Virus record (IMG/VR): IMGVR_UViG_2534681773_000022
DNA from: a virus
Lineage: Duplodnaviria; Heunggongvirae; Uroviricota; Caudoviricetes
DNA: 50,514 bases
Reading direction: 5' to 3' (one strand)
Shown: piece after piece, positions 5,981-39,843 of the stretch
Position numbering within the stretch: position 1 is the stretch's first letter
Layout of the letters: the number at the start of each line of letters is the position of its first letter
Notes under the pieces: generated by a model
The model's database searches: none
Told to the model about the DNA's origin: nothing
Seen by the model: only the letters and a program-made list of their open reading frames with translations
Position numbers and translations under genes: made by a program

Positions 5981-6457
5981 TTAAGTTCCTGTCTTGGTGA
6001 TGTTCTGGCTTTTCCGTTTTGATTCTTGATTTTTCAGATAGTTAGCTACCTTCATTTCCATTGCGGCAATGTAGGCGCGAACGTCATGATCAACCCAACT
6101 AGGCTCCGTAGCATTTCCAGATAAGATGAAAGCCACAATTGCTCTTTTTTCATCAGAGGCGGCTTGATAAAGGCTGTTTATGTCTAAAAGTTCACTTTTT
6201 GTATCTGAAGTGGATGGGGTTGGTATGGGGTATTCGTTAAGCCCCCAATGCTCTGGACCAACCACATCAGAAAAGAAACGCCATAGTTCTGGAAGTTTGT
6301 CTTTACTTATCGAACCTTTCTTAATCCAGTCATGGATTGATGGTGGTTGGACTTTGAAATGACGTGCGATTTCCGCCTTTGATTTGACGGCTCCTGATGC
6401 AATTTTTTTGTTAATGGCCTGCTCTATCGCTCGGCCTAAGTCTTTACCACTAAGCAT
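5981..6457 (-). CDS. CI-like prophage repressor (HTH DNA-binding protein)
   Basis: 158-aa ORF divergent from the cro-like gene and flanked by palindromic operators on both sides; HTH-like segment AEIARHFKVQPPSIHDWIKKG. Confidence 0.75.
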   Translation of the reverse strand: MLSGKDLGRAIEQAINKKIASGAVKSKAEIARHFKVQPPSIHDWIKKGSISKDKLPELWRFFSDVVGPEHWGLNEYPIPTPSTSDTKSELLDINSLYQAASDEKRAIVAFILSGNATEPSWVDHDVRAYIAAMEMKVANYLKNQESKRKSQNITKTGT

Positions 6458-6509: not shown

Positions 6510-6552
6510 ATTAGGCATAGCCTATTGACAATTTCATTAGGCTAAGCCTAAT
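6510..6552. promoter_or_regulatory. OR operators: ATTAGGC-ATA-GCCTATT (6510-6526) and perfect palindrome ATTAGGC-TAA-GCCTAAT (6536-6552)
   Basis: Two 17-bp inverted repeats in the repressor/cro intergenic region, bracketing and overlapping the pR -35 and -10. Confidence 0.65.
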
Positions 6553-6554
6553 AT
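6525..6554 (+). promoter_or_regulatory. pR-like early rightward promoter (-35 TTGACA, -10 CTAATA/TAATAT)
   Basis: TTGACA at 6525-6530 with a -10-like hexamer 17-18 bp downstream, about 30 bp upstream of the cro-like start. Confidence 0.55.
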
Positions 6555-6581: not shown

Positions 6582-6905
6582 ATGAAAAAAGATAACTATT
6601 CATTCAAACGAGCTTGTGCTGTTGTCGGTGGGCAATCAGCAATGGCTAGGCTTTTAGGTGTATCTCCTCCAAGCGTAAATCAATGGATCAAAGGTGTACG
6701 TCAGTTACCTGCTGAGAGATGTCCTGCGATTGAACGAGCAACAAAAGGTGGTGTCCTGTGTGAAGAACTTCGTCCTGATGTTGATTGGACATACTTACGA
6801 CGCTCGTCATGTTATTCGCAGAATATGTCGATGAAGCAACCAAATGACGAAAACGATCATACCCGAAGCATCAAGAGGCAAATGATTCATGAAAATCAAA
6901 CATGA
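6582..6905 (+). CDS. ydaS: Cro/CI-type HTH regulator, YdaS-like
   Basis: Translation (MKKDNYSFKRACAVVGGQSAMARLLGVSPPSVNQWIKG...) matches the remembered Rac-prophage YdaS; GGAG RBS; first rightward gene. Confidence 0.75.
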   Translation: MKKDNYSFKRACAVVGGQSAMARLLGVSPPSVNQWIKGVRQLPAERCPAIERATKGGVLCEELRPDVDWTYLRRSSCYSQNMSMKQPNDENDHTRSIKRQMIHENQT

Positions 6906-7314
6906 GCACATCCGCATGGCGATGAATGCCTGGGCATACCCTGATGGTGAGAAAGTTCCTGCAGCTGAAATAGCCCGGACTTATTTCGAACTGGGGATGA
7001 CGTTCCCTGAACTGTACGACGACAGCCATCCGGAAGCCCTGGCCCGTAATACCCAGAAAATTTTCCGTTGGCTGGATAAAGACACCCCTGATGCTGTTGA
7101 AAAAATGCAGGCTCTGTTACCGGCGATCGAAAAGGCGATGCCGCCTTTGCTGGTGGCCCGTATGCGCAGCCACAGTTCTGAATATTACCGTGAGATCGTC
7201 GAACGGAGGGATCGGCTGGTGAAGGATGTCGATGATTTTGTTGCGTCAGCGGTTGTTTTGTATGACCAGATGAATCGCGGCGGCCCGGCAGGGAATGCTG
7301 TGGTGATGCACTAA
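6889..7314 (+). CDS. ydaT: YdaT-like protein (CII-like regulator / putative toxin partner of YdaS)
   Basis: 141-aa ORF beginning MKIKHEHI, overlapping the end of ydaS; matches the remembered Rac YdaT N-terminus and length. Confidence 0.7.
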   Translation: MKIKHEHIRMAMNAWAYPDGEKVPAAEIARTYFELGMTFPELYDDSHPEALARNTQKIFRWLDKDTPDAVEKMQALLPAIEKAMPPLLVARMRSHSSEYYREIVERRDRLVKDVDDFVASAVVLYDQMNRGGPAGNAVVMH

Positions 7315-7336: not shown

Positions 7337-8299
7337 ATGAGCAGCAAGCTTCATGGTCTTGTCTGGGAAGGGTGCGCCTTCACCGGCATGATCTTATCCA
7401 GGGTGGCGGTTATGGCCCGTCTTGCAGACTACAGCAATGACGAGGGCGTGTCATGGCCTGCCATTGAAACTATCCGGCGTCAGATCGGTGCAAGAAGTGA
7501 ATCCACAGTGAAATCGGCTATTGCAGAACTGGCGAAAGAGGGCTGGCTGACGAAGGAAGAGCGTAAGGTCGGTGGGCGTAATGTAAGCAATATCTATCGG
7601 CTTAATGTGGAAAAACTCGAAGCAGCTGCGGCGGCGGCGCGTGAGTCATATAAACCGAAAAGAAAAATTAGCCCGGCAAAAAATGACCCGTTAACAGTTG
7701 ACCCGTCAAATATTGACCCCTCAACGGTTGACCCGTCAAATTTTGATGGATCAACTGTTGATAAAAAACTGCCGATTAGGGGGCCGATGATTGACCCCGA
7801 TCCGTCAGTATTAAAACCTGATCCGTCAGATAAAAGATCTTCTTGTCCGGACGCTTCGCAACCGGACCCGCAGACGGCTGAACAGGATTTTTTAACCCGA
7901 CACCCTGACGCGGTTGTGTTCAGTGCGAAAAAACGCCAGTGGGGAAGTCAGGAAGATTTGGTGTGCGCACAGTGGATCTGGGGACGAATCGTGAGTCTTT
8001 ACGAGCAGGCGGCCAGCGATGATGGCGAGATCACTAGACCGAAAGAACCCAACTGGACAGCATGGGCCAATGACGTTCGCACAATGCGGATGCTGGATGG
8101 CAGAACTCACAGACAAATTTGTGAAATGTTTGGGCGTCTCCAGCGGGATTCGTTCTGGGTAAAAAACATCATGAGTCCGGCAAAACTCCGGGAAAAATGG
8201 GATGAACTGGTTATCCGCCTGGGGCGTTCGCCAGCGCAGCGTTGCGTGAATCACATTTCTGAACCGGACACTGAAATTCCGCCGGGCTTCAGGGGGTAA
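7337..8299 (+). CDS. Replication initiator, O-like (N-terminal winged-helix domain; iterons inside the gene)
   Basis: 320 aa; GGGGG RBS; the linker (DPLTVDPSNIDPSTVDPSNFD) is encoded by an array of 12-bp palindromes, as the lambda origin lies within O. Confidence 0.65.
   Translation: MSSKLHGLVWEGCAFTGMILSRVAVMARLADYSNDEGVSWPAIETIRRQIGARSESTVKSAIAELAKEGWLTKEERKVGGRNVSNIYRLNVEKLEAAAAAARESYKPKRKISPAKNDPLTVDPSNIDPSTVDPSNFDGSTVDKKLPIRGPMIDPDPSVLKPDPSDKRSSCPDASQPDPQTAEQDFLTRHPDAVVFSAKKRQWGSQEDLVCAQWIWGRIVSLYEQAASDDGEITRPKEPNWTAWANDVRTMRMLDGRTHRQICEMFGRLQRDSFWVKNIMSPAKLREKWDELVIRLGRSPAQRCVNHISEPDTEIPPGFRG
7683..7754. repeat. Iteron array / candidate replication origin: five 12-bp palindromic sites (TTGACCCGTCAA type) at exact 15-bp phasing
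   Basis: Sites at 7683, 7698, 7713, 7728 and 7743; the last is a TTGATGGATCAA variant; inside the initiator gene. Confidence 0.65.
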
Positions 8300-8339
8300 G
8301 TGTTAATTTCTGGTCATGAGGTAATTTTCAGGAGGGCTT

Positions 8340-8762
8340 GTGGCAAAAGTTTTTACACAAGAAGAGCGGGAAAAAATTAAAGGGCAGGTTGTTGAACTCG
8401 TACGCCAGAGTGGGCGCGAGACGTTACGACAACTGGAAACTAAAACTGGGGCAACAAGATATCTGATGAGCGTTCTGGCCAGAGAGCTGGTTGCCAGTGG
8501 CGATGTATACAACTCTGGTTACGGGTTATTCCCGTCTGAACAGGCGCGTAAGGACTGGCAAAATGCCCGTAAAAAGCTCTCAAGGGCAAAGCTGAAGAAA
8601 CCATCTGCGGTTGATCCGGACCTTATCTGGTCATTACCTGACGGAGAAATACGTCGCTACGACAGGCGCCTAAACATAATCTGTCGCGAGTGCCGGAAGA
8701 GTGAAGCTATGCAGCGTGTACTGGCGTTTTATCAGGGGAATTTTGAGGAGGTGGTGCGGTGA
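8340..8762 (+). CDS. Hypothetical protein (GTG start, strong RBS)
   Basis: 140-aa ORF with AGGAGG 5 nt upstream of GTG; occupies the position of a helicase loader but is too small and has no ATPase motifs. Confidence 0.5.
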   Translation: MAKVFTQEEREKIKGQVVELVRQSGRETLRQLETKTGATRYLMSVLARELVASGDVYNSGYGLFPSEQARKDWQNARKKLSRAKLKKPSAVDPDLIWSLPDGEIRRYDRRLNIICRECRKSEAMQRVLAFYQGNFEEVVR

Positions 8763-10155: not shown

Positions 10156-10647
10156 ATGCAAATTTCACCGGTTACTCTTCGTGTTGCGAAGGCGTTTATA
10201 TCCAGACATCACCGACACAATAAACCCCCGGTGGGGCATAAATTCAGCATTGGTCTGAGAAATGATGCCGGAGAATTGATAGGTGTGGCGACAGCCGGTA
10301 GACCTGTTGCACGACATTTGGACGATGGATTAACGCTTGAAGTAAATCGCACATGTACCACAGGAGAACGCAACGCTAACAGCGCGCTTTATGGTGCTGT
10401 CTGGCGGGCAGCAAAGGCTATGGGTTATCAACGTTGTATTACGTACACCCAGGCAGATGAATCAGGAGCATCTCTCCGCGCAGCTGGTTTTGTTCGTGTG
10501 AAAGAGCTTCCTCCAAGAAAAAGCTGGGCGGAATCAAGCGTCGCCCTGCGGAGTAAACGCGATCCGGTCGGAAACGGTGGTGTTCCTCGTGTGCTCTGGG
10601 AAATCAGGAGAATGAGTACCACTGGCATTCGCATCAAAGGAGAGTGA
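10156..10647 (+). CDS. Hypothetical protein (cassette bracketed by 22-bp direct repeats)
   Basis: 163-aa ORF with AAGGAGAG RBS; family not recognised from sequence. Confidence 0.5.
   Translation: MQISPVTLRVAKAFISRHHRHNKPPVGHKFSIGLRNDAGELIGVATAGRPVARHLDDGLTLEVNRTCTTGERNANSALYGAVWRAAKAMGYQRCITYTQADESGASLRAAGFVRVKELPPRKSWAESSVALRSKRDPVGNGGVPRVLWEIRRMSTTGIRIKGE
10626..10647. repeat. 22-bp direct repeat, copy 2
   Basis: 21 of 22 positions identical to 10132-10153. Confidence 0.6.
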
Positions 10648-38819: not shown

Positions 38820-39145
38820 AAACCTTCCGCTGGAAAGTGAAACCCGGGATGGATGTGACATCGGCTCCTTCCGTCAGGGAGGTGCGCTTTGGTGATGGCT
38901 ATTCCCAGCGTGCGCCTGCCGGGCTGAACGCTGACCTGAAAACGTACAGCGTGACGCTGTCTGTCTCCCGTGAGGAGGCCACGGCGCTGGAGTCGTTTCT
39001 GGCTGAGCACGGGGGCTGGAAGGCCTTTCTGTGGACGCCGCCTTATGGTTACAGGCAGATAAAGGTGACCTGCGCAAAATGGTCGTCGCAGGTCAGTATG
39101 TTGCGTGTTGGGTTCAGCGCAGAGTTTAAACAGGTGGTGAACTGA
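38816..39145 (+). CDS. M: Minor tail protein gpM
   Basis: 109-aa ORF nearly identical in memory to lambda M. Confidence 0.9.
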   Translation: MKTFRWKVKPGMDVTSAPSVREVRFGDGYSQRAPAGLNADLKTYSVTLSVSREEATALESFLAEHGGWKAFLWTPPYGYRQIKVTCAKWSSQVSMLRVGFSAEFKQVVN

Positions 39146-39843
39146 TGCAGGATATCCGGCAGGAAACACTGAATGAATGCACCCGTGCGGAGCAGTCGGC
39201 CAGCGTGGTGCTCTGGGAAATCGATCTGACAGAGGTCGGTGGAGAACGTTATTTTTTCTGTAATGAGCAGAACGAAAAAGGTGAGCCGGTCACCTGGCAG
39301 GGGAGGCAGTATCAGGCGTATCCCATTCAGGGGAGCGGTTTTGAACTGAATGGCAAAGGCACCAGTACGCGGCCCACGCTGGCAGTCTCTAACCTGTACG
39401 GCATGGTCACCGGTATGGTGGAAGATATGCAGAGTCTGGTCGGCGGAACGGTGGTCCGGCGTAAGGTTTACGCCCGTTTTCTGGATGCGGTGAACTTCGT
39501 CAACGGAAACAGAGACGCCGATCCGGAGCAGGAGGTGATCAGCCGCTGGCGCATCGAGCAGTGCAGCGAACTGAGCGCGGTGAGTGCCTCCTTTGTACTG
39601 TCCACGCCGACGGAAACGGATGGCGCTGTTTTTCCGGGGCGTATCATGCTGGCCAACACCTGCACCTGGACCTATCGCGGTGATGAGTGCGGTTATCACG
39701 GTCCGGCAGTCGCGGATGAATATGACCAGCCGACGTCCGATATCACGAAGGATAAATGCAGCAAATGCCTGAGCGGCTGTAAGTTTCGCAATAACGTCGG
39801 CAACTTTGGCGGCTTCCTTTCCATTAACAAACTTTCGCAGTAA
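39145..39843 (+). CDS. L: Minor tail protein gpL
   Basis: 232-aa ORF closely resembling lambda L, including the C-terminal Cys cluster. Confidence 0.9.
   Translation: MQDIRQETLNECTRAEQSASVVLWEIDLTEVGGERYFFCNEQNEKGEPVTWQGRQYQAYPIQGSGFELNGKGTSTRPTLAVSNLYGMVTGMVEDMQSLVGGTVVRRKVYARFLDAVNFVNGNRDADPEQEVISRWRIEQCSELSAVSASFVLSTPTETDGAVFPGRIMLANTCTWTYRGDECGYHGPAVADEYDQPTSDITKDKCSKCLSGCKFRNNVGNFGGFLSINKLSQ

Follow-up and report, generated by a model that had tools for sequence, protein, structure and literature searches.

The DNA analysed here is the virus record IMGVR_UViG_2534681773_000022, a stretch of 50,514 nucleotides (hereafter the window) that corresponds to an E. coli lambdoid prophage with Rac-like immunity genes of the YdaS and YdaT types. 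Its replication initiator gene, located at 7337..8299 on the plus strand, encodes a protein of 320 aa and was analysed with Pfam, PHROG, AlphaFold2 (AF2), Foldseek and BLASTP. Matches to this gene at 80% coverage or more are found in 1514 of 5426 complete genomes, where RefSeq labels it only as a 'helix-turn-helix domain-containing protein'. A sequence-only reading of the locus had proposed an O-like initiator, and the searches agree: the protein matches PHROG 391 'replication initiation O-like' with an E-value of 4e-115, and homology with lambda O and phi80 gp15 is seen over its C-terminal half. Inside the gene lies a tightly phased array of short repeats. This array, and its candidate role in the replication origin of the prophage, are the subject of this study.

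The array is composed of five 15-bp units, each made of a 12-mer and a 3-bp spacer (7683..7757, plus strand). The 12-mers are ATGACCCGTTAA at 7683, TTGACCCGTCAA at 7698 and again at 7728, TTGACCCCTCAA at 7713 and TTGATGGATCAA at 7743. Their start-to-start distance is exactly 15 bp, as the sequence-only reading had reported. Units 1-4 are in forward orientation and read TTGACCC[G/C]TCAA, copy 1 (7683) being degenerate. Unit 5, TTGATGGATCAA, is the motif in reverse orientation and appears as a minus-strand match in the motif scan. A degenerate sixth unit, TTGATAAAAAAC (7758..7769, plus strand), has the left arm TTGAT followed by A6. From 7683 to 7769 the full array thus reads ATGACCCGTTAA cag TTGACCCGTCAA ata TTGACCCCTCAA cgg TTGACCCGTCAA att TTGATGGATCAA ctg TTGATAAAAAAC. 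The 12-mers had been described as palindromes. This holds for their 5-bp inverted arms, TTGAC/GTCAA; the palindromes are imperfect, with an asymmetric CC(C/G) centre. Tandem Repeats Finder (TRF) and a repeat search returned a period of 15 and also a period of 30 with 84% matches, the latter because the 3-bp spacers alternate. At two mismatches or fewer, the motif is absent from both strands of the rest of the 50.5-kb window. First-order Markov simulations of the window (n=500) gave at most 2 sites per 75-bp span, versus 5 observed.

Region 7693-7759 also forms one large imperfect palindrome with 33-nt arms that are 79% complementary. As single-stranded DNA, it folds into a long hairpin (-16.9 kcal/mol, z = -5.6), probably a side effect of the last unit being inverted. 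A known RNA was considered for this region and rejected: Rfam gave only a sub-threshold match to mir-250, which is spurious because of the dyad symmetry of the array itself.

The units are in frame within ORF 7337-8299 and encode NDPLTVDPSNIDPSTVDPSNFDGSTVDKK, so that the repeats do encode the repetitive linker of the initiator, as had been read from the sequence. The AF2 model, built from a 54-sequence alignment, predicts a winged-helix N-domain (aa 1-105, pLDDT 72-87), a disordered linker (aa 108-172, pLDDT about 30 and below 50), a helical lambda-O-type C-domain (aa 178-297, pLDDT 77-92) and a disordered tail (aa 298-313, pLDDT <50). In the N-domain, helix 55-67 is in the position of a recognition helix and a beta-hairpin wing is formed by residues 71-89. 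The predicted disordered linker corresponds to 7658-7852 of the window, that is, to the array and the segment to its right. In the Pfam search, residues 25-71 match HTH_36 (PF13730; 27.9 bits for a gathering cut-off of 25) and a weak DnaD_N match is also seen; the same search gave no match of the protein to Phage_rep_O or to a Rep_3-type domain, as found in the Rep proteins of iteron plasmids. Search for structural similarities of the N-domain using Foldseek revealed only generic winged-helix regulators of the MarR/PadR type, and a solved initiator structure was not among these matches.

The C-domain gives a different picture. Its coding region, 7880..8236 on the plus strand, was delineated by tblastn with lambda O and by BLASTP. 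With tblastn, lambda O is 38.7% identical to the window over 119 aa (E 2e-23). With BLASTP, aa 153-300 of the initiator align with lambda O 145-277 (E 5e-26), and the C-domain is 36% identical to that of phi80 gp15 (E 5e-26). Overall, the homology with the lambda O C-domain amounts to 35-39% identity with E-values from 2e-23 to 5e-26. The N-domain has no detectable similarity to the N-domain of lambda O and is unrelated by sequence to that of phi80 gp15, BLASTP aligning only the C-domains. By these comparisons, the initiator is a chimera that combines an HTH_36 N-domain unrelated to lambda O with a true lambda-O/phi80-gp15 C-domain. The C-terminal domain of lambda O contacts the P-DnaB complex.

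The array was then viewed across relatives. These were taken from phage records (SfIV, 689R6, 733R5, YeP1, LLS, Kp4866-6 and Stx2_KH16-043), from E. coli RM10410 and from ten genomes of Erwinia, Mixta, Edwardsiella, Symbiopectobacterium, Citrobacter and a soil metagenome-assembled genome. An array with 15-bp phasing occupies the matching place in 15 of the 18 relatives analysed. The three exceptions are the most distant loci (L013-L015), which bear other palindromic repeats at the place of the array. With these three set aside, 74 units (53 distinct) from 15 loci and at least 8 genera were compared. The best-conserved positions spell T-G-A ... T-C-A-A and the family logo is symmetric about positions 7/8. 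Positions 3 (T, 71/74) and 12 (A, 71/74) are third codon positions as well as dyad partners. Each carries 1.76 bits, equal to the highest value in the unit, the remaining third codon positions having 0.17-0.52 bits. The residue preceding Asp/Glu is variable (V, I, F, S, N, Y, P or R) and its codon nearly always ends in T. Serine is encoded by TCA in 53 of 74 cases within the arrays versus 93 of 401 outside (Fisher p = 2e-15). Units are found in both orientations: TTGACCCCTCAA encodes DPS, its reverse complement TTGAGGGGTCAA encodes EGS, and DGS also occurs for inverted units. The right-most unit is inverted in 7 of the 9 arrays of the window's class. Arrays have between 2 units (P0015) and 9 units (Edwardsiella anguillarum), and the protein length varies accordingly in steps of 5 aa. 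A scan of IMG/VR, from which 80 near-identical loci were kept, added one 4-unit allele and point variants. Iteron number also varies between relatives and changes the length of O in lambda and Stx phages, with 4 iterons in lambda versus 6 in Stx phages, where O is longer by 13 aa (PMC7466680). In the same study, the iterons of P27 were recoded synonymously.

Synonymous conservation was measured, on nine genes of six lineages aligned by codon, as the fraction of identical codons at identical residues. This identity is 0.76-0.95 over 7676-7880. In the two folded domains it mostly stays at 0.35-0.57, apart from a single local peak of 0.69 close to the wing. Because dyad-related third positions are conserved, units occur in both orientations, copy number is variable and synonymous identity is raised, the alignments show that selection acts on the DNA rather than on the peptide. 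The zone of high synonymous conservation reaches about 125 bp beyond the end that the sequence-only reading had given to the array. Its five units stand, and the conserved origin-like sequence runs to the right, up to about 7880.

Several features are visible in this right flank. An iteron-like TTGACCCC joined to GATCCGTCAG (7791-7808) and CCTGATCCGTCAG (7817-7829) form a direct repeat on the plus strand, in which the two GATCCGTCAG copies are 21 bp apart and flank TATTAAAAC. These repeats, spanning 7791-7829, are conserved in the SfIV, 733R5, Erwinia, Edwardsiella and Klebsiella relatives. In a nearest-neighbour free-energy scan, 7805..7844 (67.5% A+T) came out as the 40-mer of lowest stability in the gene, and is a candidate unwinding segment. 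It starts 50 bp after the last full site and ends in AAAAGATCTTCTTGTC, which the DNA alignment shows to be common to the lambda and phi80 origins. Further to the right, an inverted repeat, GTCCGG-N11-CCGGAC (7845..7867), marks the edge of the zone of synonymous conservation, with a synonymous identity of 0.91-0.95. A strong A+T-rich DNA unwinding element comparable to that of lambda was not found in the window. Candidate DnaA boxes were also discarded: one-mismatch boxes are present at 7606 and 7756, and their count over the window is not above chance. The second, TTATCAACA (7756-7764, minus strand), overlaps the sixth unit and is not conserved in relatives.

The flank is also rich in GATC. 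The sites at 7749, 7799, 7820 and 7836 form the densest 100-bp GATC cluster of the window. Over 15 loci, GATC occurs at 22.8 per kb in the 120-bp stretches to the right of the arrays, compared with 4.3 per kb elsewhere in the genes. In 689R6, 733R5, LLS and YeP1, a gene annotated as DNA (adenine) methylase or methyltransferase lies 1-2 genes downstream of the initiator. The GATC cluster and these downstream genes hint at a control of the origin by methylation or SeqA.

An origin inside the initiator gene is textbook knowledge for lambdoid phages; lambda, and with it the Stx phages 933W and P27, counts among the closest known systems. The sequence-only reading had remarked that the layout mirrors that of lambda, and the positions coincide closely. 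The array occupies nucleotides 347-418 of the gene, between the parts coding for the N- and C-domains, and the five 12-mers plus one degenerate unit are spaced by 15 bp. In lambda, where the origin likewise lies between these two coding parts of the initiator gene, the record annotates four 18-bp iterons at nucleotides 349-433 with spacings of 20, 24 and 23 bp. In phi80, the record annotates four gp15 sites of 15-16 bp at 365-441 with a spacing of 20-21 bp. In lambda as in the window, the least stable segment of the gene comes to the right of tandem dyad-symmetric initiator sites, and a ren-like gene is found downstream, as is the DUF977 gene (PHROG 142) of the window. The BLASTP alignment with lambda O begins at 7793 of the window and at lambda 39118, the last base of lambda iteron 4. 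Similarity is weak over its first ~35 residues. In the lambda gene, the 40-mer of lowest stability is at 39122, within a 42-bp A+T-rich segment (39119-39160; 78.6% A+T). Segment 7805-7844 is placed as in lambda to the right of the repeats, but its A+T content is weaker and it is GATC-rich. At the right edge of the A+T-rich part, the window, lambda and phi80 have AAAAGAT(C/T).T.CGTC in common.

Differences are equally clear. The window has 12-bp sites in a strict 15-bp register and in both orientations, whereas the lambda sites are longer and more irregularly spaced. Unlike lambda, the window has no P gene, and its initiator has an extra DnaT-like C-terminal tail. phi80 has four gp15-binding palindromes inside gene 15 and, to the right of these sites, a motif ...GTATTAAAAGATCTTCGTCCG that closely resembles window 7808-7850. 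However, its sites differ, three of four reading TTCCCGAAA[A/T]C[A/G]GGAA, and a P-like gene 14 follows. Another parallel is provided by the initiators of SfII/SfIV and of the e14/CPS-53 type. Their HTH_36 N-domains are 52% identical to that of the window, they have a 15-bp phased array in the identical place and frame (TCTGACCCGTCAAAA), they share the GATCCGTCAG pair and no loader gene follows. In contrast, their arms read TCTGA... and not TTGAC..., the encoded peptide is D(P/A)SKS and the immunity region is another one.

Plasmid iterons usually have 17-22 bp with a spacing of about 22 bp, and are direct repeats outside the rep gene. The repeats of the window are intragenic and dyad-symmetric, unlike this type. 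Likenesses are nevertheless seen with iteron plasmids (RepA, pi, TrfA), where tandem repeats of variable copy number stand beside an unwinding element and the initiators are winged-helix proteins (PMC4980987).

Comparison of mosaic relatives indicates how the array segregates with the two halves of the initiator. Phage mEp460, whose initiator is named 'Primosomal protein I', and sister E. coli prophages have the window's C-domain and tail, with 86-92% DNA identity from 7832 onwards (86% for mEp460); mEp460 and the window also have the downstream DUF977 gene in common. The N-domain of mEp460 and these sister prophages is unrelated to that of the window, and their linker carries GGTCAAAAYG repeats with spacings of 48, 21 and 24 bp. 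Conversely, the N-domain and array of the window are combined with an SfIV-type C-domain in P0019, and in two other loci (L011, L012) an array of the window's class is joined to a third type of C-domain. The N-domains of the SfIV group (~52% identity) go with TCTGAC..GTCAAAA repeats, and N-domains at 49-61% identity (L013-L015, Stx2_KH16-043) go with TCTGAACCTTCAAAA or CCTCCAGAATCTGGAGG repeats. The array thus travels with the N-domain. This is in agreement with the rule drawn from lambda and phi80, by which the N-terminal half of the initiator determines origin specificity, and these alignments are supportive of it, not decisive. Physical linkage alone would also produce such co-travel.

Repeats of other kinds were observed in the linkers of several loci. 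In mEp460 (L103, 1840-1960) and L104, four repeats of the GGTCAAAAYG type are accompanied by a 12-bp tandem, ACAGAGAATACA, in 2.8 copies; these repeats are probably mEp460's own origin. In loci L014 and L015 (~2840-2960), L013 and L100, the linker repeats are a perfect 17-bp palindrome, CCTCCAGAATCTGGAGG, or TCTGAACCTTCAAAA. These are followed by a GATCCACAAG pair, within which TGATCCACA is one mismatch away from a DnaA box. Pseudomonas phage phi2 (L101, 1750-1850) has a distant HTH_36 O-like initiator, also with repeated linker DNA. There, two copies each of ~20-bp units encode PPQEMHP and TPADAAP, and the next gene is annotated as a P-like helicase loader.

The absence of a helicase loader next to the initiator had been pointed out from the sequence. 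It extends to the whole window, in which tblastn with the DnaC-like protein of RM10410, K-12 YdaV, lambda P and a Pseudomonas P-like protein found no loader homologue. The genes beside the initiator are DUF977 / Ren-like and small unknowns. The statement has to be qualified for the family: of the 80 loci from IMG/VR whose N-domain is identical, 53 carry a DnaC-like gene behind the initiator, and the DUF977 layout is seen in 25. In RM10410 (87% identical; L003, 3470-5424), the initiator and DUF977 are separated by genes for a DnaC-like ATPase and a DUF1627 protein. In the window, DUF977 follows the initiator directly (8300-8762), with 57% aa identity to the RM10410 copy. Because homology to RM10410 ends exactly with the stop codon of the initiator and starts again at DUF977, the loader-less layout is, as judged from the alignments, an alternative mosaic and not a simple deletion. 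The complete 45.9-kb genome of mEp460, with C-domain and DUF977 as in the window, yielded no loader homologue either, and no loader gene lies beside the initiator in the phage records of SfIV, 733R5, LLS and YeP1. Deposited phage genomes thus contain the loader-less version of the module repeatedly.

The extreme C-terminus of the initiator, ...VNHISEPDTEIPPGFRG (8237..8296, plus strand), matches that of DnaT. A phmmer search against PDB chains retrieved the DnaT structures 2ru8, 6aep and 9zbt with E-values of 0.01-0.03. Against NCBIfam NF002770, the match scores 16.8 bits for a family cut-off of 201 and covers only profile positions 159-179 of 179. The likeness to host DnaT is restricted to its last ~20 residues (SEPDxxIPPGFRG-COOH; ...SEPDTEIPPGFRG), the N- and C-domains of DnaT being absent from the initiator. 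The same tail ends YdaU of the K-12 Rac prophage (DUF1376), the mEp460 initiator, Kp4866-6 and LLS, with variants IPAGFRG in SfIV and IPPGFKG in L014/L015. On this comparison, it looks like a portable peptide common to unrelated families of phage initiators. Its occurrence in the YdaU/DUF1376, mEp460, SfIV and L014 initiator types suggests a portable, uncharacterised module for host hijacking. The role of the DnaT C-terminal tail is not stated in PMC13377028 or PMC4132743. The resemblance to DnaT gives a lead, nothing more, towards docking of the host primosome. The Rac oriJ/YdaU module was considered as a counterpart, in view of the Rac-like immunity, and set aside: K-12 YdaU is a DUF1376 protein of which only the last 19 aa match the initiator. 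A literature search on oriJ gave nothing usable.

Together, these data point to region 7683-7880 as the lambdoid replication origin of the prophage, located inside the linker-coding part of its own initiator gene. We consider this assignment very likely. That the array marks the prophage origin had been suggested from the sequence, and the computational evidence supports it through DNA-level selection, position and linkage to the N-domain. A working scheme can be proposed. The N-terminal winged-helix domain, probably as a dimer, would bind each dyad 12-mer, TTGAC-CC-GTCAA. Five to six such sites, one per 15 bp with the right-most inverted, would assemble a tight nucleoprotein array equivalent to the lambda O-some. 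The 15-bp register corresponds to ~1.4 helical turns and would set neighbouring sites ~150 degrees apart, on nearly opposite faces of the DNA. Because of this register, the complex would form a compact spiral rather than an in-phase O-some. Strain from the array may open the least stable, GATC-rich segment at ~7805-7845, probably helped by rightward transcription from a pR-like promoter, and the methylation state of the GATC sites may modulate this opening. The O-type C-domain and the DnaT-like tail would then recruit host DnaB. Recruitment may proceed through host DnaC or the primosome in the window prophage, and through a phage DnaC-like loader in most sister prophages. A bolder version is an initiator-only lambdoid replicon, in which the HTH_36 initiator coats the tight array and the DnaT-derived peptide docks the host primosome or DnaB-DnaC, no phage loader being involved. 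We regard this version as tentative and somewhat doubtful.

Some observations weigh against this assignment. The A+T-rich segment is weak (67.5% versus 78.6% in lambda) and, on the scale of the window, the stability of its 40-mer does not stand out. All arrays share a single reading frame, so that some of the similarity comes from common protein ancestry. The units are not independent samples, as they arise by duplication and shared descent. Part of the high synonymous identity at 7784-7880 may stem not from purifying selection but from recent recombination, as a mosaic junction lies there. With no loader encoded, the origin may be silent even if intact. The literature searched, on SfII/SfIV, iterons and replication modules, gave no description of the origin of this initiator family, nor experimental binding or origin activity. 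Weigel and Seitz (2006) reportedly predicted origins within initiator genes in a generic way.

Four other explanations were considered. The array could be a protein feature only, a linker of tandem x-D-P-S-x pentapeptides grown by slippage and devoid of DNA function. Indeed, all arrays of the family encode a D/E-x-S pentapeptide in one frame, disordered linkers are often of low complexity and tandem duplication alone gives phased repeats. But the top-conserved positions are synonymous and paired across the dyad while the amino acids vary, and inverted units alter the peptide (DPS to EGS or DGS) and keep the DNA motif. Moreover, a disordered linker has little reason to fix codons, as seen in the TCA bias (p = 2e-15) and the raised synonymous identity. 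We therefore hold this explanation for very improbable. Sequence swapping offers an equally remote one, in which the conservation of 7784-7880 would reflect a recombination linker at a mosaic junction, used for exchanging the N- and C-modules of initiators, and not an origin. Blastn similarity to phages with other N-domains starts at 7799 and 7832, and the segment is found joined to at least 3 C-domain types and two N-domain types. The array itself is left unexplained, however, since its units differ between lineages and dyad positions are kept. The equivalent segment of lambda is part of ori (PMC7466680), and the two roles are not exclusive.

Alternatively, the repeats could be protein-binding sites used for control (autoregulation or roadblock, handcuffing or incompatibility, phage exclusion), with the origin located elsewhere. 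Plasmid iteron arrays also serve in copy control, and cloned lambda ori iterons inhibit related phages (PMC3349717, PMC4488673). The weak A+T-rich element and the lack of a loader in the window would fit as well. Against this, the position and flanks correspond to the proven origins of lambda and phi80, the 50.5 kb contain no second motif cluster, so that no alternative iteron cluster is visible, and the DNA-level constraint spans the adjacent unstable, GATC-rich segment. A role in control with a separate origin thus appears improbable, if less so than the two previous explanations. A relic deserves more attention, although we find it unlikely too: the origin sequence would be intact but dead in the window prophage, its loader gene having been lost. 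The contrast between the window and the 53 of 80 relatives of identical N-domain that have a DnaC-like gene speaks for such a loss, as does the interruption of RM10410 homology between the initiator stop codon and DUF977. On the other hand, the initiator ORF of the window is intact, the loader-less layout occurs in 25 of the 80 relatives, the complete mEp460 genome has a matching C-domain and DUF977 layout with no loader homologue, and the SfIV, LLS, 733R5 and YeP1 records likewise have no loader gene beside the initiator.

If region 7683-7880 is the origin, what is new is an origin definition at the sequence level for a second, very common family of DNA-binding domains, with unusually short and tightly phased sites. 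It would provide an origin annotation for an initiator that is widespread in E. coli prophages under a bare helix-turn-helix label. The DNA-binding domain and the iterons would constitute one exchangeable module, joined to C-domains of the lambda-O type or of others, which extends the classic picture of lambda, phi80 and 82 to a second DNA-binding fold family. The array would predict replication specificity and the incompatibility of co-resident prophages, and a fragment carrying it could be used for lambda-dv-style vectors. The loader-less layout, in combination with the DnaT-like tail, would be relevant to the capture of the host helicase by phages. The combined test of codon positions and dyad symmetry can be reused for origins hidden in other initiator genes.

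A 15,977-bp circular 'plasmid' (L107, NZ_CP148542.1) carries a repressor, cro, the window's initiator with its array, a DnaC-like gene, DUF977, Q and lysis genes, and no other replicon. Its content is confined to the early-right region of a sister prophage, and either a lambda-dv-like element or an artefact of assembly may explain it. We did not use it as evidence of autonomous replication, its initiator and ydaT genes being frameshifted at homopolymers in a way that resembles long-read errors.

The surroundings of the initiator gene complete the lambdoid layout. At the position of the repressor, a divergent ORF (5984-6457) had no match in Pfam or PHROG searches. Upstream of the initiator, the same searches identified a YdaS/Cro-type gene (6582-6905) and a YdaT/CII-like gene (6889-7314). 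Directly downstream lies the DUF977 / Ren-like gene (PHROG 142; 8340-8762). A consensus scan identified a near-consensus sigma-70 promoter candidate, TTGACA-18-TAATAT (6525..6554, plus strand), which precedes the cro-like gene and is placed like lambda pR; the count of such sites in the region is not above chance. Transcription from this candidate would run rightward across the initiator gene and the array. Further downstream, an ORF on the plus strand (10156-10647) matches PHROG 1384 'Mom-like DNA modification protein', and its equivalent in a sister prophage is named 'XF1762 family protein' in RefSeq.

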